A stretch of 64,000 bases of DNA from sequence record NC_054919.1; one strand, written 5' to 3'. Of the stretch, positions 2,253-47,266 are shown in pieces (the first letter of the stretch is position 1; each line of letters starts with the position of its first letter). This DNA comes from Escherichia phage vB_EcoM_G4507. The position numbers and the translations under genes were made by a program. The notes under the pieces are model-generated. The model saw nothing but the letters and a program-made list of their open reading frames with translations. It ran no database searches and was not told the DNA's origin.

Positions 2253-2858
2253 GTGATTATTTCTAAGTTTGTTACAATAAAACCAAGAAATCATTCAAAA
2301 ATGTGGTCGACAATTCTGGGATATAAAGTATCATATCATGATACAGTATCTGTTCCAATAGAATTAATGCCAAAGAATAGTAATAAAATAGTTGACGCTA
2401 AATGTGATTTGTGTGGTACTAAATTTAGTAGAAGCATTCAACTTTTAAATAGAACACCCACACATGCATGTAGAAAATGTAGCATTAAACAAGTTGCTAT
2501 TAAAAATTCGGAAGTTCAATCTGGAATAAGCAGACCATGGCAAAGAGGCGATAAACATCCTCGATGGACTGGTAAAAGAAAAGAGTTTGCATTATATGCT
2601 AGTAGAGTTCATTCTATAACTAAGTCAGCTAAAATAAGAAAAATTTGGTCAAAATGGCCGAATGCTGATAAAATAGGAGTGTGTGGAGTAGAAGGTGCTT
2701 ACCAACTCGATCATAAAGTATCTATCAAATATGGATTTGATAATTTAATTCCGCCGGAAATTATAGCAAGCGTAAAAAATTTAGAAATAATCACTTGGGA
2801 ATCTAACCGAGAAAAGTCAAAAAGAAATAGCGTAGATCTTTGGGATTTACTAGAATGA
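2253..2858 (+). CDS. free-standing HNH-family endonuclease (mob-like)
   Basis: C-terminal HNH-like motif GAYQLDHKVSIKYGFDNLIPPEIIASVKNLEIITWESNREKSKRN plus Cys pairs (CDLCG...CRKCS). Start set at GTG 2253 preceded by GAGGA; alternative ATG at 2301. Confidence 0.6.
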   Translation: MIISKFVTIKPRNHSKMWSTILGYKVSYHDTVSVPIELMPKNSNKIVDAKCDLCGTKFSRSIQLLNRTPTHACRKCSIKQVAIKNSEVQSGISRPWQRGDKHPRWTGKRKEFALYASRVHSITKSAKIRKIWSKWPNADKIGVCGVEGAYQLDHKVSIKYGFDNLIPPEIIASVKNLEIITWESNREKSKRNSVDLWDLLE

Positions 2859-3489: not shown

Positions 3490-5114
<1,625 letters not shown>

Positions 5115-11821: not shown

Positions 11822-13240
11822 TTATGGATAGGTATAGATGATACCAGTTTCTAAAGCAGTTTTATGAATGATGTATCCATTGCGTGATTCTTGAACATCA
11901 ACTTCTGGATAGTCTTTCATCATCTTCTGAAGAGTGTAACGATGCAGGTAGTATTTACTATCTGGATCTTCAGTTTTCCAATCTTTACCTTCTTCGGTCA
12001 TTTTTTGGATTTCATCCATAACCCACCAACCGCACCAGATATAAGCTGAAGTGCGATGTGGAAGAGGATGAACATAAGGCAATTCACCTTCTGGTTCCGG
12101 AGCAACTTTATCAGTTACCTGAACTTGGCCTGTTGCTTTAACTGTTTTACTATCATAGTCGGTTGCTGTAACGGTTGCAGTAACTTCAATAGTTTGACTT
12201 CCAATAGATGATGTATCAACCGTGTATACATTAGTTGATTCTTCTACAGGAGAAGAATCTTTCTTCCATGAATATTCGATTTGTGCTTCTTCTGGAGCAT
12301 CCGTAACATTAGCAGTAAATGTAGCCGAAGCATCTTGCTGAACGTTAATAGAAGGAGGAGTCAATGTAACCTGTGGATTCATTGTCTTCTTATTAACTGT
12401 TAATGATACTTCATTAGAAGTAACTTCCTTTTCATTGTAATTTTCAGCCGTTACTTGGGCTACGCATTTAATTCTTTTTACTCCACTTGTAGTTGGAGTA
12501 TAGTTAAATGTAGAGTTAGTTTCTCCACCAATTTGAGAATCATCTACATACCATTTATATGTAGCAGACGCTCCATCAGGTTGAGAAACCAAGGCAGCAG
12601 TAAATTGAACTGGGGTTCCAATTACTCCAGCTGGAGGACTATCAGGAGTTACTGCCAAGGTAGTTGTCTGCGTCTTTTTATTAACAGTCAGTGACACTTC
12701 ATTGGAAGTAACTTCCTTTGTATCATAATCTGTCGCGGTTACTTGAGCTACGCACTTAATTGTTTTAACTCCGCTTGCGTCAGGAGTGTAATTGAATGTA
12801 GTGCTAGTTGCTTCGCCCACAGGAGAACCGTCAACGTACCATTGATACGTAGCGTTTGCACCTGATGGCTGTGAAGCTAAGGCAGCGGTAAATTCAATTG
12901 GAGTTCCAATCACTCCAGCATCAGGGCTACCAGGAGTTACTGCCAAAGTAGTTGTTTGTGTCTTATTTTGAACTGTGATAGTTGTACTAATTTCAGCTGT
13001 TTCAGGTTCAGATTCTGCAACTTGATTGGTTGCAACTACTTTAATAGTCTTTTGACCGGCAGGTCCTTTTAGTACATAACTAAAAGTTGCTGACGTTTCT
13101 TCCTGTGGAGCGTCGTCTACAGTCCAAGCATATGTAATAGGTCCATCTCCAGTTTGACCACTGGGTGTAGCAGTAAACTGCTGAGTCTGATCTATAACTC
13201 CAGTAGGTGTTTTAGGAGTTATATCAACTGTAAAAGCCAT
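11822..13240 (-). CDS. hoc: highly immunogenic outer capsid protein Hoc, with four Ig-like domains
   Basis: 472-aa ORF; two adjacent ~96-aa modules (KTQTTTLAVTP...EVTSNEVSLTVNK) are near-identical; conserved C-terminal capsid-binding region; synteny. Confidence 0.9.
   Translation of the reverse strand: MAFTVDITPKTPTGVIDQTQQFTATPSGQTGDGPITYAWTVDDAPQEETSATFSYVLKGPAGQKTIKVVATNQVAESEPETAEISTTITVQNKTQTTTLAVTPGSPDAGVIGTPIEFTAALASQPSGANATYQWYVDGSPVGEATSTTFNYTPDASGVKTIKCVAQVTATDYDTKEVTSNEVSLTVNKKTQTTTLAVTPDSPPAGVIGTPVQFTAALVSQPDGASATYKWYVDDSQIGGETNSTFNYTPTTSGVKRIKCVAQVTAENYNEKEVTSNEVSLTVNKKTMNPQVTLTPPSINVQQDASATFTANVTDAPEEAQIEYSWKKDSSPVEESTNVYTVDTSSIGSQTIEVTATVTATDYDSKTVKATGQVQVTDKVAPEPEGELPYVHPLPHRTSAYIWCGWWVMDEIQKMTEEGKDWKTEDPDSKYYLHRYTLQKMMKDYPEVDVQESRNGYIIHKTALETGIIYTYP
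12389..12964 (-). repeat. tandem duplication of two ~288-bp units inside hoc (Ig-like domains 2 and 3)
   Basis: Protein residues 93-188 and 189-284 are near-identical; DNA units at 12389-12676 and 12677-12964 computed from the ORF frame. Confidence 0.7.
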
Positions 13241-13249
13241 AAGTTATCC

Positions 13250-13930
13250 TTATTTTAATGTTACGAAAGAAGAATTACGTGTTTCACGAATTAGAACTGA
13301 TCCGTCACGATTAATGTAGTAAATTAAGCTAAATAAAGTTTGGTGTGCCGACGCATGTTCAAAACTAGTTGGGTGAGATTTCCAATCTGGGGTTTCAGCA
13401 ATCCATTGATAAATCCACCAAGGAACAGTGCAGAATCCTGGATTTTTTCCAATCAGCTGAAGATTCGGACTAAAGTTTTCCGGAAGAGTAAATACAGACG
13501 GCTTTTCAGATTCAATAATCTCAGCTACAGCCTGTTCGAATTTTTCTTCAACAAAAGGAGTATCTTCAATTAAAACAGTGGTATTTTCAGGAATTTTATC
13601 CGTTTCTACTACTTCAATTTTAATGTCAGATTTAACCGGAGAATCAATCAGAAGTGCTGCCTCTGGATTGACTTCTTCATCGTCATATTTTAATCCGTCT
13701 GCGGCATCAGCAGCATCAATTAAGTCTTTAATAGATAACCCATCAGTCTCTGGCATAGGTTCACTAGCGAGCTTCTGGAGAGCTTCTTCAATATCATTAA
13801 CGATATTATCAAAAGATTTATTCTTTTTGACCTTTATACCAAACTGTTCAGCATATTCAGCTAATTTAGCTTTAGCTTCTTTATTATCATCAAGAGCCTT
13901 CAGCTCTGCAATATAATCTTTATCTATCAT
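13250..13930 (-). CDS. inh: inhibitor of prohead protease (Inh)
   Basis: 226-aa ORF directly downstream of hoc; length and position match T4 inh as recalled. Confidence 0.8.
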   Translation of the reverse strand: MIDKDYIAELKALDDNKEAKAKLAEYAEQFGIKVKKNKSFDNIVNDIEEALQKLASEPMPETDGLSIKDLIDAADAADGLKYDDEEVNPEAALLIDSPVKSDIKIEVVETDKIPENTTVLIEDTPFVEEKFEQAVAEIIESEKPSVFTLPENFSPNLQLIGKNPGFCTVPWWIYQWIAETPDWKSHPTSFEHASAHQTLFSLIYYINRDGSVLIRETRNSSFVTLK

Positions 13931-13979
13931 AATATTTCCTCAGTATAAATATAGATATATTTATTACTCGGAAAATAGT

Positions 13980-14597
13980 ATGTACCACTTTGTATATGAA
14001 ACAACAAATCTAATAAATGGTAAAAAGTATATAGGAAAACACTCTACTGATGACTTGAATGATGGTTACCTTGGTTCCGGTAAGGCAATTCAGCAGGCTA
14101 TAAAGAAATATGGTGAAAACAATTTCTCTAGAACAATACTAAAAGAGTTTAAAACTTCCGAAGAAGCGTACATGTATGAAGAAGAAATTATAACTCCTGA
14201 AATAATAAAAAGCAAAAATTATTATAATATGAAACCTGGTGGAATTGGTGGAATTGTTATGACTACAGAGGTTATAGCAAAGATGAAAGAATCTTCCGCT
14301 AAGAGATTTGAAAACTCACCGGGCACGGTATTAGGTACAACTTGTTACACTAATGGAACTAAAAATATTTTTATTAAACCTGGAGAACTTGTTCCAGAAG
14401 GATTTGTAAAAGGAATGGTTCATCCTAATAGAAAGTCCAGAAAAGGATGTAAAGTCAAACCGACTACCACAGGAACTTTTTGGGTCAATAACGGTGCAAT
14501 AAATAAATTAATACAACCAGACGGTATTATTCCCGACGGATTTATTAAAGGTCGTCTCATGAAAAGAGATTCTAAAGGCAAATTTAGTAAGGCATAA
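13980..14597 (+). CDS. segE: GIY-YIG homing endonuclease, seg-like (segE position)
   Basis: N-terminal GIY-YIG motif: HFVYETTNLINGKKYIGKHS...YLGSGKAI...E; 205 aa; sits between inh and uvsW on the opposite strand from its neighbours. Confidence 0.65.
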   Translation: MYHFVYETTNLINGKKYIGKHSTDDLNDGYLGSGKAIQQAIKKYGENNFSRTILKEFKTSEEAYMYEEEIITPEIIKSKNYYNMKPGGIGGIVMTTEVIAKMKESSAKRFENSPGTVLGTTCYTNGTKNIFIKPGELVPEGFVKGMVHPNRKSRKGCKVKPTTTGTFWVNNGAINKLIQPDGIIPDGFIKGRLMKRDSKGKFSKA

Positions 14598-14599
14598 TT

Positions 14600-16108
14600 A
14601 TGGATATTAAAGTACATTTTCACGACTTCAGCCATGTACGCATCGATTGTGAAGAGAGCACGTTCCACGAATTAAGAGATTTCTTTTCGTTTGAGGCCGA
14701 TGGATATAGATTTAATCCTCGCTTCAGATATGGCAACTGGGATGGACGAATCCGTCTTTTAGATTATAATCGTCTTCTTCCATTTGGCTTAGTCGGGCAA
14801 ATTAAAAAGTTCTGTGATAACTTTGGCTATAAAGCCTGGATTGACCCACAAATTAACGAAAAAGAAGAATTATCAAGAAAAGATTTTGATGAATGGCTTT
14901 CTAAATTAGAAATCTATTCAGGAAATAAAAGAATTGAACCGCATTGGTATCAAAAAGATGCAGTGTTCGAAGGATTAGTTAATCGTCGTAGAATTCTTAA
15001 TCTTCCAACATCCGCTGGTAAATCTTTAATTCAAGCTTTGCTTGCGCGATATTATTTGGAAAATTATGAAGGCAAAATTCTTATCATTGTTCCAACAACT
15101 GCTCTGACAACTCAGATGGCTGATGACTTTGTTGACTATCGTTTATTCAGTCATGCAATGATAAAGAAAATCGGCGGTGGAGCATCAAAAGATGATAAAT
15201 ATAAAAATGATGCACCGGTCGTTGTTGGTACATGGCAAACTGTAGTTAAACAACCAAAAGAATGGTTCTCACAGTTTGGAATGATGATGAATGATGAATG
15301 CCATCTTGCTACAGGAAAAAGTATTTCATCTATCATATCAGGTTTAAATAACTGTATGTTCAAATTTGGTCTATCTGGTTCATTACGTGATGGCAAAGCC
15401 AATATCATGCAGTATGTTGGAATGTTTGGTGAAATATTTAAGCCAGTAACGACTTCTAAGTTAATGGAAGATGGACAAGTAACTGAGCTAAAAATTAATA
15501 GTATTTTTCTTCGCTATCCCGATGAGTTCACTACTAAATTAAAGGGAAAAACTTATCAAGAAGAAATAAAAATTATTACGGGGCTTAGTAAAAGAAATAA
15601 ATGGATCGCTAAATTGGCTATTAAGCTTGCACAAAAAGATGAAAACGCTTTTGTCATGTTTAAACATGTATCACATGGTAAAGCTATTTTCGATTTAATT
15701 AAAAATGAATACGATAAAGTTTATTACGTATCAGGGGAAGTTGATACCGAAACCCGCAATATAATGAAAACCTTAGCTGAAAATGGTAAAGGAATAATTA
15801 TAGTAGCTAGTTATGGTGTATTTTCTACTGGTATTTCAGTTAAAAATCTGCATCACGTTGTTTTAGCGCACGGTGTTAAATCAAAAATCATTGTATTACA
15901 AACAATCGGTCGTGTATTACGTAAGCATGGTTCTAAAACAATCGCAACAGTCTGGGACCTCATAGATGACTGTGGTGTCAAGCCAAAATCTGCTAATACT
16001 AAAAAGAAATATGTTCACTTGAACTATCTTTTAAAACACGGCATTGATCGTATTCAGCGCTACGCAGATGAAAAATTTAATTACGTAATGAAAACAGTTA
16101 ATTTATAA
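14600..16108 (+). CDS. uvsW: UvsW RNA-DNA/DNA helicase
   Basis: 502-aa ORF with Walker A PTSAGKS and DExH box MNDECH; synteny. Confidence 0.93.
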   Translation: MDIKVHFHDFSHVRIDCEESTFHELRDFFSFEADGYRFNPRFRYGNWDGRIRLLDYNRLLPFGLVGQIKKFCDNFGYKAWIDPQINEKEELSRKDFDEWLSKLEIYSGNKRIEPHWYQKDAVFEGLVNRRRILNLPTSAGKSLIQALLARYYLENYEGKILIIVPTTALTTQMADDFVDYRLFSHAMIKKIGGGASKDDKYKNDAPVVVGTWQTVVKQPKEWFSQFGMMMNDECHLATGKSISSIISGLNNCMFKFGLSGSLRDGKANIMQYVGMFGEIFKPVTTSKLMEDGQVTELKINSIFLRYPDEFTTKLKGKTYQEEIKIITGLSKRNKWIAKLAIKLAQKDENAFVMFKHVSHGKAIFDLIKNEYDKVYYVSGEVDTETRNIMKTLAENGKGIIIVASYGVFSTGISVKNLHHVVLAHGVKSKIIVLQTIGRVLRKHGSKTIATVWDLIDDCGVKPKSANTKKKYVHLNYLLKHGIDRIQRYADEKFNYVMKTVNL

Positions 16109-16122
16109 GGGCTTCGGCCCTT
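16107..16122 (+). terminator. hairpin AAGGGC-UUCG-GCCCUU between uvsW and uvsW.1
   Basis: 6-bp stem with UUCG loop overlapping the uvsW stop; the ORF-track TTG start at 16122 reads through it. Confidence 0.45.
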
Positions 16123-16133
16123 TGGAGAAAAAG

Positions 16134-16364
16134 ATGTTACTAGAATTTAAACAATTTCTTTATGAAGCTTCTATTGATGAATTTATGGGTAAAATTGCCT
16201 CTTGTCAAACATTAGAAGGTTTAGAAGAACTTGAAGCTTATTATAAGAAAAGAGTTAAAGAAACTGAATTAAAAGATACTGATGACATCTCAGTCAGAGA
16301 TGCTTTGGCAGGAAAAAGAGCTGAATTAGAAGATTCAGACGATGAAGTAGAAGAAAGCTTTTAA
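16134..16364 (+). CDS. uvsW.1: UvsW.1 small acidic protein
   Basis: Start moved from TTG 16122 to ATG 16134 (GGAG 7 nt upstream), giving 76 aa: MLLEFKQFLYEASIDEFMGKIASCQTLEG... Confidence 0.7.
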   Translation: MLLEFKQFLYEASIDEFMGKIASCQTLEGLEELEAYYKKRVKETELKDTDDISVRDALAGKRAELEDSDDEVEESF

Positions 16365-40271: not shown

Positions 40272-41859
<1,588 letters not shown>

Positions 41860-41867
41860 AATAAAAT

Positions 41868-41881
41868 GGGCCTTGCGGCCC
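41868..41881 (-). terminator. hairpin GGGCC-GCAA-GGCCC between nrdB and denA
   Basis: 5-bp GC stem with GNRA-type loop (minus-strand sense). Confidence 0.45.
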
Positions 41882-41886
41882 ACTCC

Positions 41887-43065
41887 TTAAAAGTATTTTT
41901 TAAAACTCATCATAACTTTATCATCAACATCATTATCAATCTGTGCAACAAGGTAAGATGACAGTTCTACTTCTTGTGGCGCGGATTGAACATTATCAGA
42001 ATTAAGATATTCACGAATCCAAGGATACGGATGTTTAACCGGAGCATCGGTAATTGGGCATGGAAGACCACACTGTTTCATACGAGATACAGTTAAGTAA
42101 TCAATAAAGCTCCACATGCTATTTGTATTTAATCCAGGAACATCGCCGTCTTTAAATAAATGAACTGCCCAATCTTTTTCTTGGCGGTTAACTTCCATGA
42201 AAATATCAACTGCTTCTTGTTCACACTCTTGAGCAATTTTAACCCATTCATCGCCATCAGTGCCAAGTTGAAGTTGACGAATAATATATTGGGTGCCTTT
42301 AAGGTGAAGCTGCTCATCACGTGCAATGAACTTCATAATCTTGGCATTACCTTCCATGATTTCCATGTTTTTATGGAAGTTAAAGGTACATGCGAAAGAT
42401 ACATAAAAACGAATAGCTTCCAATGCGTTGATTACATGCAAACAGAGGTAAAGAGATTTCATTAGCTCACGCTTCCAATATGTCTCATGCTCAATAGCAT
42501 CTTCAATAACGTCTTCGTCTGCATTAATTTCTTTTTGGTATTCGATATCAGCTTTAGCGTTTTCCCAATAACGAGTTTTAATCAGAACATCATCATAATA
42601 ACGTCCAATGGATTCAGCACGTTTCATAATAGCTTCATCTAATACAATTTCATCAAATACCTTCGATGGATCAGTATAAAGATTTCGCATGATATGTGTA
42701 TATGAACGGCTGTGAATAGTTTCACTAAAAGTCCACGTAGCAACCCATGTATCAAGGCTTGGGTCTGAAATTAATGACATAAGTACAGCAGACGGCGCAC
42801 GACCCTGAATGCTATCCAAAAGTGATTGATACTTCAGATTATTAGTAAAAATATTTTGCTGATACTGAGGAAGCTTATTAAACTGTGCAGCATCCATCAT
42901 CAAGTTTACTTCTTCAGGACGCCAGAAAAATGATAATTGCTTTTCGGTTAAATCTTCAAAAACTTTATGACGTTGAATATCATAACGCGCAATACCAAGA
43001 CCTGAACCAAAAAACATAGGTTCTTTTAAAACATCAACTGGATTTGTATTAAAAACTGTGCTCAT
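41887..43065 (-). CDS. nrdB: ribonucleotide reductase small subunit NrdB (continuous, no intron)
   Basis: 392-aa uninterrupted ORF MSTVFNTNPVDVLKEPMFFGSGLGIARYDIQRHKVFEDL... Confidence 0.93.
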   Translation of the reverse strand: MSTVFNTNPVDVLKEPMFFGSGLGIARYDIQRHKVFEDLTEKQLSFFWRPEEVNLMMDAAQFNKLPQYQQNIFTNNLKYQSLLDSIQGRAPSAVLMSLISDPSLDTWVATWTFSETIHSRSYTHIMRNLYTDPSKVFDEIVLDEAIMKRAESIGRYYDDVLIKTRYWENAKADIEYQKEINADEDVIEDAIEHETYWKRELMKSLYLCLHVINALEAIRFYVSFACTFNFHKNMEIMEGNAKIMKFIARDEQLHLKGTQYIIRQLQLGTDGDEWVKIAQECEQEAVDIFMEVNRQEKDWAVHLFKDGDVPGLNTNSMWSFIDYLTVSRMKQCGLPCPITDAPVKHPYPWIREYLNSDNVQSAPQEVELSSYLVAQIDNDVDDKVMMSFKKYF

Positions 43066-43116
43066 AAATTTTCCGCTTAGTTAATAGATAGTGACTCGTC
43101 CATGAGTCAAATTATA

Positions 43117-45381
43117 TCATAATTTACAGGATGAACAATCTTCAGCTTTTGGAGTTTCTATTTCATAATCATCAGTACCAGAACCATCACGGGTATTATG
43201 ATAATAGAAATTTTTTCCGCCAAAATACCAAAAATACAAAAGGTCATCAATCATTATTGACATTGGAACCTTGCCTTTAGGGAAGATTTGGGGGTCATAA
43301 TATGTATTCGCTGAAGCTGATTGACACACCCATTTCAGCATAATAGCTACCTGCGTAAGATAAGGTTTATTACCTTTCTTAGCTAATTTCCATGTATAAT
43401 CATAGAGGTCTATGTTATGCTCAATATTGGGCACGACTTGATTAAAGGAGCCCTCTTTTGATTCTTTAACAGAGACTGGTCCACGTGGAGGCTCGATACC
43501 GTTTGTACTGTTAGAAACTTGGGAAGATGACTCACATGGCATAAGTGCTGATAATGTGCTATTACGGATGCCAAAGAGCTTAAGGTCTTCCCGCAGCGAC
43601 GACCAGTCACAAACGTATTTTGGAGCTGCGATTTGGTCAATCTTTTTATTGTACCAGTCGATAGGTAATTCGCCTCGAGACCAACGAGTGTCTGAATAAT
43701 ATTCGCAAGGTCCTTTTTCTTTGGCGAGCTTAATGGATGCTTTAATGAGTCCATACTGTAATCTCTCAAATAGTTCATGTGTTAAATCGTTAGCATCTTC
43801 ATAAGAAGCAAAGTTACTTGCCAGCCAAGCTGCATAGTTGGTAACACCTACACCGAGGTTACGACGCTTTTTGGCTTTTTCTGCTTCAGGAACCGGATAT
43901 CCTTGGTAATCCAAAAGATTATCAAGAGCACGAACTTGGACTTCTGCCAATTCATTAATTTTATCTTGGTCTTGCCAATCAAAGTTATCCAGCACAAATG
44001 CTGATAACGTGCACAATCCAATTTCAGCATCAGGACTATTCACATCATTTGTTGGAATAGCAATTTCACAGCACAAGTTACTCTGACGAATAGGTGCCTT
44101 TTCACGAATAAACGGAGTATAGTTATTCGTATTATCAATGAACTGTACATAAATCCTTGCTGTTCCTGAACGTTCAGTCATGAGCAATTCAAATAGTTCA
44201 CGGGCTTTAATACGCTTTTTACGAATATTAGGGTCTTTTTCTGCTGCTTCGTACAATTCACGGAAACGGTCTTGGTCTTTAAAATAAGAATAATAAAGTT
44301 CGCCACCCATTTCATGCGGACTAAACAAAGTAATGTAATCGTTCTTTCCGAATCGTTCCATCATTAGGTCATTCAGCTGGACGCCATAATCCATATGACG
44401 GATACGGTTTTCTTCTACACCTTTGTTATTTTTCAAAACGAGAAGATTTTCAACTTCCAAATGCCAAATAGGATAATAAGCAGTAGCAGCGCCGCCACGA
44501 ATTCCGCCCTGTGAACATGATTTAACAGCAGTCTGAAAATGTTTCCAAAAAGGAATAACCCCAGTATGGCGTACTTCACCCATGCCAATCTTAGAACCTT
44601 CGGCACGAATCATACCAACGTTAATACCAATTCCAGCGCGTTTAGAGATATATTCAACAATCGAAGCGGAAGCCTTATTGATAGACTTCAGCGAATCACC
44701 TGCCTCAATAACAACACATGAACTAAACTGTCGAGTCGGAGTACGACAACCAGCCATAATAGGAGTTGGTAATGAAATCTGTCGAGTAGATACTGCTTCA
44801 TAAAAACGAATAACATGTTTTAATCTATCAACAGGTTCATCTTGATGCAATGCCATTCCAATAGTCATAAATGCAAACTGCGGAGTTTCATAAATTTGAC
44901 CAGTGGTTTTATCTTTAACTAAATATTTTTCTTTTAATTGCATCGCCCCGGAATAAGTAAATTCCATATCCCGCTCGTGCTTAATTTTTGATTCTAAAAA
45001 TGTAATTTCTTCTGCTGAATATTTTGACAACAATTCAGGGTCATATTTACCTGCATTTACACAGTAAGAAATATGGTCAATAAATGAACGTGGTTCATAC
45101 TGCCCATAAACATGCTTACGAAGAGCAAACATTAAACAGCGTGCAGCTACATATTGATAATCAGGTTCTTCAACCGAAATAGAATTCGCAGCAGCCTTAA
45201 TGACAATAGTCTGAATATCATCAGTTGTCATTCCATCACGGAGATATGATTTAATATTTTCATATAATTCATAAGGATCTACTGATGTTCCCTCAGATGC
45301 CCAAGATAAAACTTTAATAATTTTTTGCGGGTCAAAGCTCTGAGAAACACCACTACTTTTGATAACATTAATTAATTGCAT
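43117..45381 (-). CDS. nrdA: ribonucleotide reductase large subunit NrdA
   Basis: 754-aa ORF with N-terminal ATP-cone region and class I RNR catalytic region; length matches T4 NrdA as recalled. Confidence 0.95.
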   Translation of the reverse strand: MQLINVIKSSGVSQSFDPQKIIKVLSWASEGTSVDPYELYENIKSYLRDGMTTDDIQTIVIKAAANSISVEEPDYQYVAARCLMFALRKHVYGQYEPRSFIDHISYCVNAGKYDPELLSKYSAEEITFLESKIKHERDMEFTYSGAMQLKEKYLVKDKTTGQIYETPQFAFMTIGMALHQDEPVDRLKHVIRFYEAVSTRQISLPTPIMAGCRTPTRQFSSCVVIEAGDSLKSINKASASIVEYISKRAGIGINVGMIRAEGSKIGMGEVRHTGVIPFWKHFQTAVKSCSQGGIRGGAATAYYPIWHLEVENLLVLKNNKGVEENRIRHMDYGVQLNDLMMERFGKNDYITLFSPHEMGGELYYSYFKDQDRFRELYEAAEKDPNIRKKRIKARELFELLMTERSGTARIYVQFIDNTNNYTPFIREKAPIRQSNLCCEIAIPTNDVNSPDAEIGLCTLSAFVLDNFDWQDQDKINELAEVQVRALDNLLDYQGYPVPEAEKAKKRRNLGVGVTNYAAWLASNFASYEDANDLTHELFERLQYGLIKASIKLAKEKGPCEYYSDTRWSRGELPIDWYNKKIDQIAAPKYVCDWSSLREDLKLFGIRNSTLSALMPCESSSQVSNSTNGIEPPRGPVSVKESKEGSFNQVVPNIEHNIDLYDYTWKLAKKGNKPYLTQVAIMLKWVCQSASANTYYDPQIFPKGKVPMSIMIDDLLYFWYFGGKNFYYHNTRDGSGTDDYEIETPKAEDCSSCKL

Positions 45382-46250: not shown

Positions 46251-47266
46251 CATTATGTTCAGATAAGGTCGTTAATCTTACCCCGGAATTATATCCAGCT
46301 GCATGTCACCATGCAGATCAGACTATATCTCCAACTTGTTAAAGCAAGTTGTCTATCGTTTCGAGTCACTTGACCCTACTCCCCAAAGGGATAGTCGTTA
46401 GGCATTTATGTAGAACCAATTCCATTTATCAGATTTTACACGATAAGTAACTAATCCAGACGAAATTTTAAAATGTCTAGTTGCATCTGCTGCACAATCA
46501 AAAATAACCCCATCACATGAAATCTTTTTAATATTACTAGGCTTTTTACCTTTCATCTTTTCTGATATTTTAGATTTAGTTATGTCTGAATGCTTATGAT
46601 TAAAGAATGAATTATTTTCACCTGAACGATTTCTGCATTTACTACAAGTATAAGCAGAAGTTTGTATGCGAACACCGCACTTACAAAACTTATGGGTTTC
46701 TGGATTCCAACGCCCGTTTTTACTTCCGGGTTTACTGTAAAGAGCTTTCCGACCATCAGGTCCAAGTTTAAGCATCTTAGCTTTAACAGTTTCAGAACGT
46801 TTCTTAATAATTTCTTCTTTTAATGGATGCGTAGAACATGTATCACCAAACGTTGCATCAGCAATATTGTATCCATTAATTTTAGAATTAAGCTCTTTAA
46901 TCCAAAAATTTTCTCGTTCAATAATCAAATCTTTCTCATATGGAATTTCTTCCAAAATAGAACATTCAAACACATTACCATGTTTGTTAAAAGACCTCTG
47001 AAGCTTTATAGAAGAATGGCATCCTTTTTCTAAATCTTTAAAATGCCTCTTCCATCTCTTTTCAAAATCTTTAGCACTTCCTACATATACTTTATTGTTT
47101 AAAGTATTTTTAATCTGATAAATTCCGCTTTTCATAAATACCTCTTTAAATATAGAAGTATTTATTAAAGGGCAGTCCTACAATTTAGCACGGGATTGTC
47201 TACTAGAGAGGTTCCCCGTTTAGATAGATTACAAGTATAAGTCACCTTATACTCAGGCCTCAATTA
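46251..47266 (-). ncRNA. self-splicing group I intron of td (1016 nt) carrying the I-TevI ORF
   Basis: Exon 1 ends CTTGGGT; intron begins UAAUUGAGGCCUGAGUAUAAGGUGACUUAUACUUG... and ends ...AUG. Boundaries give exactly 1016 nt and a uninterrupted td reading frame. Confidence 0.9.
46398..47135 (-). CDS. I-TevI: GIY-YIG homing endonuclease I-TevI (intron-encoded)
   Basis: 245 aa; MKSGIYQIKNTLNNKVYVGSAKDFEKRWKRHFKDLEKGCHSSIKLQRSF... with zinc finger CKCGVRIQTSAYTCSKC and C-terminal DNA-binding region. Confidence 0.93.
   Translation of the reverse strand: MKSGIYQIKNTLNNKVYVGSAKDFEKRWKRHFKDLEKGCHSSIKLQRSFNKHGNVFECSILEEIPYEKDLIIERENFWIKELNSKINGYNIADATFGDTCSTHPLKEEIIKKRSETVKAKMLKLGPDGRKALYSKPGSKNGRWNPETHKFCKCGVRIQTSAYTCSKCRNRSGENNSFFNHKHSDITKSKISEKMKGKKPSNIKKISCDGVIFDCAADATRHFKISSGLVTYRVKSDKWNWFYINA

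Follow-up and report, generated by a model that had tools for sequence, protein, structure and literature searches.

The window analysed here, 64,000 nucleotides of Escherichia phage vB_EcoM_G4507 (NC_054919.1), carries between the genes inh and uvsW an ATG-to-TAA open reading frame of 205 amino acids plus stop on the plus strand (13980..14597), the orthologue of T4 segE. Its upstream neighbour inh (hoc.1; 13250..13930, minus strand), the prohead protease inhibitor gene, is located downstream of hoc (11822..13240) and is divergent from segE, and the helicase gene uvsW (14600..16108, plus strand; 502 amino acids) follows immediately downstream. The inh start codon and segE are separated by 49 bp, the segE stop codon and the uvsW ATG by 2 bp, and the AAGG Shine-Dalgarno sequence of uvsW lies within the 3′ end of segE. 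A preliminary description of this DNA had placed a plus-strand ORF of 205 codons at exactly these positions, alone between a minus-strand hoc-inh block and uvsW; the ORF map and the translation, with YIGKHS at residues 17-22 and YLGSGK at residues 30-35, agree with it. The gene order of the window, namely 18, 19, 20, 67, 68, 21, 22, 23, 24, rnlB, hoc, inh, uvsW, uvsY, 25-29, 48, 54, alt and 30, followed by pseT, rnlA, denA, nrdB, nrdA, td, frd, 32, 59, 33, rnh and 34-37, is the order of T4. After uvsW, uvsW.1 forms a separate small ORF (16122..16364, plus strand; about 76-80 amino acids), an arrangement as in T2 and RB32; the RefSeq record of T4 (NC_000866) still annotates a fused uvsW of 587 amino acids, with a note on sequence discrepancies.

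Window SegE is identical to T4 SegE (NP_049795) in 202 of 205 residues without gaps (E 2e-154), and on the DNA level the gene is 98.5% identical to positions 112057-112674 of T4 (NC_000866), annotated between inh and uvsW as 'homing endonuclease; site-specific DNA endonuclease; GIY-YIG family'. The two proteins share their length, their neighbours, the upstream late-promoter box and the linked allele of the uvsW 5′ end; they differ by three conservative substitutions (I75L, E97D and T120K), and the activity of the window allele is predicted from its sequence. None of the substitutions affects a conserved position in our family alignment of 45 full-length SegE homologs (31-67% identity). The order inh, segE, uvsW, with segE co-oriented with uvsW, is found in T4 and in more than 150 phage records. 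The 2.9-kb stretch from inh to uvsW matches 808 phage records, nearly all from Tequatrovirus and relatives, the best being Escherichia phage vB_EcoM_G10400 (99.6%).

Profile searches gave a graded picture. The model PF19835 (SegE_GIY-YIG) matched with 37.6 bits, above its curated Pfam cut-off of 25, and phrog_314 ('homing endonuclease') with 8.7e-44. The generic Pfam GIY-YIG model PF01541 stayed just below its cut-off (20.9 versus 22.6 bits), and the NCBIfam model for group I intron endonucleases, TIGR01453, was also below (33.7 versus 56). Since the matches to PF19835 and phrog_314 come with a protein cluster of 72 members to which window SegE is 100% identical, and with 1412 homologs at E<=1e-3, the ORF is not a chance reading frame. 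We are highly confident that it is segE and belongs to the free-standing ('intronless') GIY-YIG homing endonuclease genes of T4-type phages, and that the homing mechanism applies to it; the earlier reading of the ORF as a seg-type GIY-YIG homing endonuclease is thereby borne out by the near-identity to T4 SegE and the same neighbours. GenBank is inconsistent in naming the gene: many of the matching entries give no more than 'group I intron endonuclease' or 'hypothetical protein', and 'tail tape measure protein' stands in the entry for T6 (AP018814).

The gene is already known, named and experimentally characterised, and the window copy is near-identical to that of T4. In T4, segE was formerly referred to as ORF 3 or the hoc.2 region. 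Kadyrov et al. reportedly characterised T4 SegE experimentally as a GIY-YIG homing endonuclease in 1994 and 1997, and the work of 1997 is said to have placed its site in uvsW of RB30, at the 5′ end, and to have found T4 DNA to be cut as well, with lower efficiency. A review on mobile DNA in T4, which cites Kadyrov et al. 1997, lists segE as a free-standing GIY-YIG gene with shown activity, inserted between inh and uvsW and with uvsW as target (PMC2988022). According to a later study, RB30 and RB52, both of which lack segE, have the cleavage site in their hoc.1-uvsW region (Brok-Volchanskaya et al. 2008, PMC2330249). Cleavage and near-100% homing have been demonstrated for T4 SegE; homing needs an intact segE and DNA homology, and flanking sequences are co-converted (PMC2330249). 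The exact target differs between these secondary sources, being 'uvsW' in one (PMC2988022) and the intergenic stretch between hoc.1 and uvsW in the other (PMC2330249).

At a DNA identity of at least 95%, segE is present in about 157 phage records, and several hundred close relatives, including T2, RB30 and RB32, are without it. To define the boundaries, the window and T4 were aligned with T2, RB32, ASO78A and the RB30 fragment Y13611, which was deposited by the SegE authors. The segE-bearing segment (13968..14602, plus strand) consists of a 12-bp leader, segE, TT and ATG. The comparison of the locus with related phages, proposed in the preliminary description, gave a clear result: 635 bp in the segE-bearing records stand against 19 bp (ATGGTATTTAGACATGACT) in T2, RB30, RB32 and ASO78A. 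On the left, the shared sequence ...TATAAATATAGATATATTTATTAC ends at position 13967, and on the right it restarts with GAT ATT AAA at position 14603, so that the matched span from inh to uvsW comprises 2243 bp without segE and 2859 bp in the window. The flanks of both kinds of alleles are 96-98% identical, and within inh 16-21 of 718 positions differ from the empty alleles. RB30 (Y13611), the recipient phage in the experiments, has an empty allele of the T2 type. The segE locus therefore shows what is expected for a free-standing homing gene, namely presence/absence polymorphism and precise boundaries in otherwise collinear DNA.

In the record of vB_EcoM_G10400 (MK327937, 3682..3907 of the compared stretch) 177 extra bp are found between inh and segE. 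The alignment ruled out an inserted element: these 177 bp, which are absent from the window, combine an adapter read-through (CTGTCTCTTATACACATCTCCGAGCCCACGAGAC-CGTACTAG-ATCTCGTATGCCGTCTTCTGCTTG) with a long run of poly-A and 53 bp of duplicated flank, and represent an assembly artefact. We take the adapter sequence to be the Illumina Nextera adapter.

The filled alleles differ from the empty ones also within uvsW. Codons 1-48 (14600..14742, plus strand) form a recoded 5′ end in the segE-linked allele, at the place that according to the literature holds or adjoins the SegE target in phages without segE. In comparison to T2 or RB30, the first 50 codons (150 nt) contain 35 nucleotide differences and the following 840 nt only 25. 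Of 26 changed codons 21 are synonymous, and among the changes are switches of several bases, for example CGC/AGA, TTA/CTC and TCG/AGC. Over codons 2-46, the alleles with and without segE share 74% identity, which rises to ∼98% directly beyond. Either island allele is 76-77% identical to a Mosigvirus uvsW, similar to the 74% between the two alleles. The T4-type island is found at an identity of at least 95% in 156 records and so tracks the presence of segE (157 records), and the T2-type island at an identity of at least 90% in 338 records. These patterns are compatible with a flank that was co-converted or resists cleavage, around the target published for the 5′ end of uvsW, and the island is what would be expected for a homing cassette that brings donor flank along and whose carrier is unlike the target near the point of cleavage. 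The target had been predicted in the preliminary description to lie in or near uvsW or inh of relatives without the gene; this is in agreement with both literature sources (PMC2988022; PMC2330249) and with the recoded uvsW 5′ end. It could also be that the island is purely hitch-hiking donor sequence without effect on cleavage.

Two segE-less phages have mosaic islands with one single crossover each. In vB_EcoM-UFV05 (UFV05; OP572230, 895..1040 of the compared stretch), uvsW is of the T2 type through codon 26 and of the T4 type to codon 46, with 19 sites of the former type and then 15 of the latter. In vB_Shso_BCPShso_001 (PV295201, 895..1040 of the compared stretch), the T2 type reaches through codon 33 and the T4 type again to codon 46, with 24 and 9 sites, respectively. 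From these mosaics it follows that the distal part of the T4-type island does not require segE; its proximal part is so far known only from phages with segE. Both mosaic alleles could serve as natural substrates for mapping SegE recognition.

A T4 late-promoter consensus box, TATAAATA (13944..13951, plus strand), precedes the segE ATG by 28 nt and is the sole exact match between positions 13000 and 16500; the window as a whole contains 18 matches, with 8.6 expected. The box is part of the shared left flank and lies directly upstream of uvsW in empty alleles and upstream of segE-uvsW in filled ones, and the annotation of the segE-less phage ASO78A gives this element as a late promoter. For segE, transcription from a promoter located in non-coding DNA upstream was described, as were promoters for the downstream gene that are embedded in segE (PMC2988022). 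A candidate for such an element, AATAAATA (14498..14505, plus strand), deviates by one mismatch from the late consensus and is situated within segE towards its 3′ end, with ∼95 nt to the start of uvsW. A scan for sigma-70 promoters and terminators over positions 13700-14800 returned fewer promoter-like sites than in shuffled controls, and its one terminator-like site was weak and lay inside uvsW; the scan is uninformative, since T4 late promoters are of another type.

The N-terminal part of SegE (residues 1-95; 13980..14264, plus strand) constitutes the GIY-YIG catalytic domain, with FVY at residues 4-6, YIG at 17-19, YLGSG at 30-34, E67, N83 and GGxGG at 87-91. Among the 45 homologs, Y6, K15, Y17, G19, D28, Y30, G32, S33, G34, K43, G45, N83, G87, G88, G90 and G191 are invariant, and H21, E67, W168 and R192 are conserved in at least 90%. 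The family profile matched only the catalytic domain of I-TevI among all PDB sequences (1LN0, 1MK0; E 0.017-0.03). This structure was reached via the family profile because a single-sequence search was insufficient: phmmer with SegE alone gave chance-level matches, which were rejected, the best of them being a tail tube protein (E 0.015). With hhalign, the SegE family aligned to I-TevI of the window with a probability of 92.9%, pairing Y6/Y6, Y17/Y17, G19/G19, E67/E75 and N83/N90. Thus, a loss of catalytic residues, raised in the preliminary description as a sign of pseudogenisation, is not observed: the GIY and YIG tyrosines, the YIG glycine, the metal-binding Glu and the Asn are all kept. 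In an AlphaFold2 model of SegE (mean pLDDT 85, >95 over residues 1-80), the closest structure retrieved by Foldseek was again the I-TevI catalytic domain (probability 1.00). The model and the profile comparisons agree and confirm a predicted GIY-YIG fold for SegE, with a three-stranded antiparallel sheet flanked by helices.

One element of I-TevI appears to be missing. The stretch DFEKRWKRH around the essential R27 stands opposite a gap of nine residues in SegE in both the hhalign and the hmmsearch alignments, residues 1-50 of SegE contain no Arg at all, and the AlphaFold2 model has a loop instead of a helix at residues 24-34. The apparent lack of the Arg27 helix extends to all 45 aligned homologs, T4 SegE included. 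Since it is family-wide and shared by the active T4 enzyme, we consider it as a probable variant active-site arrangement and not as inactivation. Judged from conservation, the family-invariant K15, D28, Y30, S33 or K43, or H21 (conserved in at least 90%), could stand in for R27.

The seemingly missing helix is also a reason to suspect that segE is a decaying or inactive relic, fixed in the lineage and kept only for uvsW expression signals in or around the gene, as the score below the PF01541 cut-off and the presence of AAGG, the ribosome-binding site of uvsW, within the 3′ end of segE might suggest. We regard this as very unlikely. The apparent lack of the helix is common to all aligned homologs including T4 SegE, for which cleavage and near-100% homing have been demonstrated, and a pseudogene reading from the missing Arg was therefore rejected, the feature belonging to an entire active family. 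Moreover, the ORF is intact and occurs in 157 records at an identity of at least 95%, every family-invariant residue is present, and the three differences from T4 SegE are all at non-conserved positions. Most relatives keep empty sites (at least 338 records), so fixation of the gene is a long way off, and its activity should still be under selection.

The C-terminal half starts with a helix that in the AlphaFold2 model links it to the catalytic domain (residues 96-112; 14265..14315, plus strand). Many homologs carry a NUMOD3-type motif at this position (PF07460, precomputed), and the helix may have a role in DNA binding. Two copies of a module follow, copy 1 at residues 116-147 (TVLGTTCYTNGTKNIFIKPGELVPEGFVKGMV; 14325..14420, plus strand), with a beta-hairpin modelled at residues 121-132, and copy 2 at residues 162-193 (TTTGTFWVNNGAINKLIQPDGIIPDGFIKGRL; 14463..14558, plus strand), with the family-conserved motif GTxWxNNG...IPxGWxKGR. 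Over ∼32 residues the copies are identical in 13 of 32 positions (internal repeat, E 2e-8), and each is modelled as a beta-hairpin. In copy 2, G165, W168, G172, G191 and R192 are invariant or nearly so among the 45 homologs. This copy also matches the C-terminus of phrog_10820, a PHROG named HNH endonuclease (8.1e-8), indicating that the module is common to different nuclease families. No Pfam model covers the modules, and no solved structure convincingly similar to them was found. By analogy with homing enzymes of modular build from the GIY-YIG and HNH families, the helix and the two repeated hairpin modules are likely to form the DNA-recognition part of SegE.

I-TevI and SegE share the GIY-YIG fold with Y6, Y17, G19, E75 and N90 (I-TevI numbering) and the division into an N-terminal nuclease and a C-terminal DNA-binding region, and both home by double-strand break repair. 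However, I-TevI is encoded in an intron, whereas SegE is free-standing and apparently lacks the R27 helix (nine-residue gap). The C-terminal regions are unrelated, since I-TevI uses a zinc finger, NUMOD3 and helix-turn-helix (PF22635, PF07460, PF20987) and SegE a helix and two hairpin repeats.

We propose that segE is transcribed together with uvsW during infection from the late promoter just upstream, as suggested by the TATAAATA box and the review (PMC2988022). According to the model and the conservation, the N-terminal GIY-YIG domain would cut the DNA and the C-terminal half would recognise the site. During co-infection with a segE-less genome of the T2, RB30 or RB32 type, SegE would then break both strands of that genome where inh and uvsW meet or at the uvsW 5′ end, as described in the literature for T4 SegE. 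The break would be repaired by recombination on the segE-carrying template, by which segE and its flanks are copied, resulting in the non-reciprocal exchange and marker exclusion known from the literature. The phage's own site differs from the target, as it is split by 635 bp and as 140 nt of the adjoining uvsW are heavily and for the most part synonymously recoded. This recoding would mark the co-converted flank and probably lowers self-cleavage.

That SegE, instead of being purely selfish, mainly serves for attack or defence when phages compete, for example by keeping out the genomes of relatives in the same cell, or benefits its host otherwise, for example by stimulating recombination or amplification near uvsW, appears very unlikely as well: Seg and Mob enzymes do cause marker exclusion of T2 and RB30 loci (PMC2330249), SegB is reported in a 2026 paper to promote amplification of anti-defence loci (PMC13096335), and segE is linked to a recombination helicase gene, but such a role needs the same mechanism of site-specific cleavage of a relative's DNA and subsequent gene conversion, the co-conversion is limited to a short flank, and our literature search found no SegE-specific evidence of benefit beyond its own spread. 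For homing by SegE itself, two refinements can be put forward, rather speculatively and with the odds against them. The SegE clade may work without the I-TevI Arg helix by means of K15, H21 or K43, and, separately, judged from the mosaic uvsW alleles of segE-less phages, the determinants of SegE sensitivity may be the intergenic 19 bp and the first ∼80-100 nt of uvsW, with the distal island being mere hitch-hiking donor DNA from a phage as distant as another genus.

In T4, SegF (gene 56), SegG (gene 32), SegB (tRNA region) and MobE (nrdB) are further free-standing enzymes of 'intronless homing' between conserved genes; they cut the neighbouring conserved gene in relatives without them and co-convert flanking markers (PMC2988022; PMC2330249). 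This co-conversion is the basis of the partial exclusion of T2 and RB30 markers. These enzymes differ from SegE in insertion sites and targets, and MobE is an HNH enzyme. Homologs of SegE itself are present at the junction of inh and uvsW in the same orientation also in other genera. The Gelderlandvirus Salmonella phage STP4-a encodes one from a family of ∼65% identity (P0004, Salmonella phage homing endonuclease), and the Mosigvirus p000y one of 243 amino acids with 48% identity (P0007). The junction between inh and uvsW is thus a recurrent landing site for the SegE family. In contrast to the window, the STP4-a homolog is annotated in a truncated form of 411 bp, and uvsW is interrupted by a further ORF. 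In this record (NC_026607; 3119..5537 of the compared stretch), uvsW is annotated in two pieces, separated or overlapped by an 876-bp ORF for a 'hypothetical protein' (4090..4965), which may be a further mobile insertion.

Due to its near-identity to the characterised T4 SegE, the window gene, a textbook case of intronless homing among T-even phages, is of little discovery value and its use lies in annotation. Usable outputs are the base-precise empty and filled alleles, the natural recombinants as candidate substrates for mapping the SegE site, and the apparent absence of the Arg helix.

The preliminary description had counted at least three endonuclease genes of two families in the window, segE among them together with I-TevI and an HNH gene. 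I-TevI is present in the td intron (46398..47135, minus strand) with its full domain set. The sole HNH candidate of the window is an unannotated ORF between genes 18 and 19 (2253..2858, plus strand), which is probably an HNH-type insertion; its assignment to HNH is itself tentative, and the count as a whole is probably right. A fourth nuclease gene that had been left out of it is denA (41449..41883, minus strand), encoding EndoII (endonuclease II), with PF01541 above the cut-off and a match to phrog_1111 (2e-65). EndoII, likewise a GIY-YIG nuclease, serves the degradation of host DNA and not homing. A search of the window for segD, segG, mobE and an nrdB intron, based on the intergenic gaps and the uninterrupted nrdB, found none of them; T4 has segG in the space separating genes 32 and 59 and mobE in that separating nrdA and nrdB, and the corresponding gaps in the window are too small for either. 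While nrdB is uninterrupted in the window (41887..43065, minus strand), in G10400, the closest public relative, it is split (42136..44404 of the compared stretch) and its two parts enclose an ORF of 810 bp, which looks like an intron with a full-length endonuclease gene. The content of homing endonucleases therefore differs even between near-identical phages.
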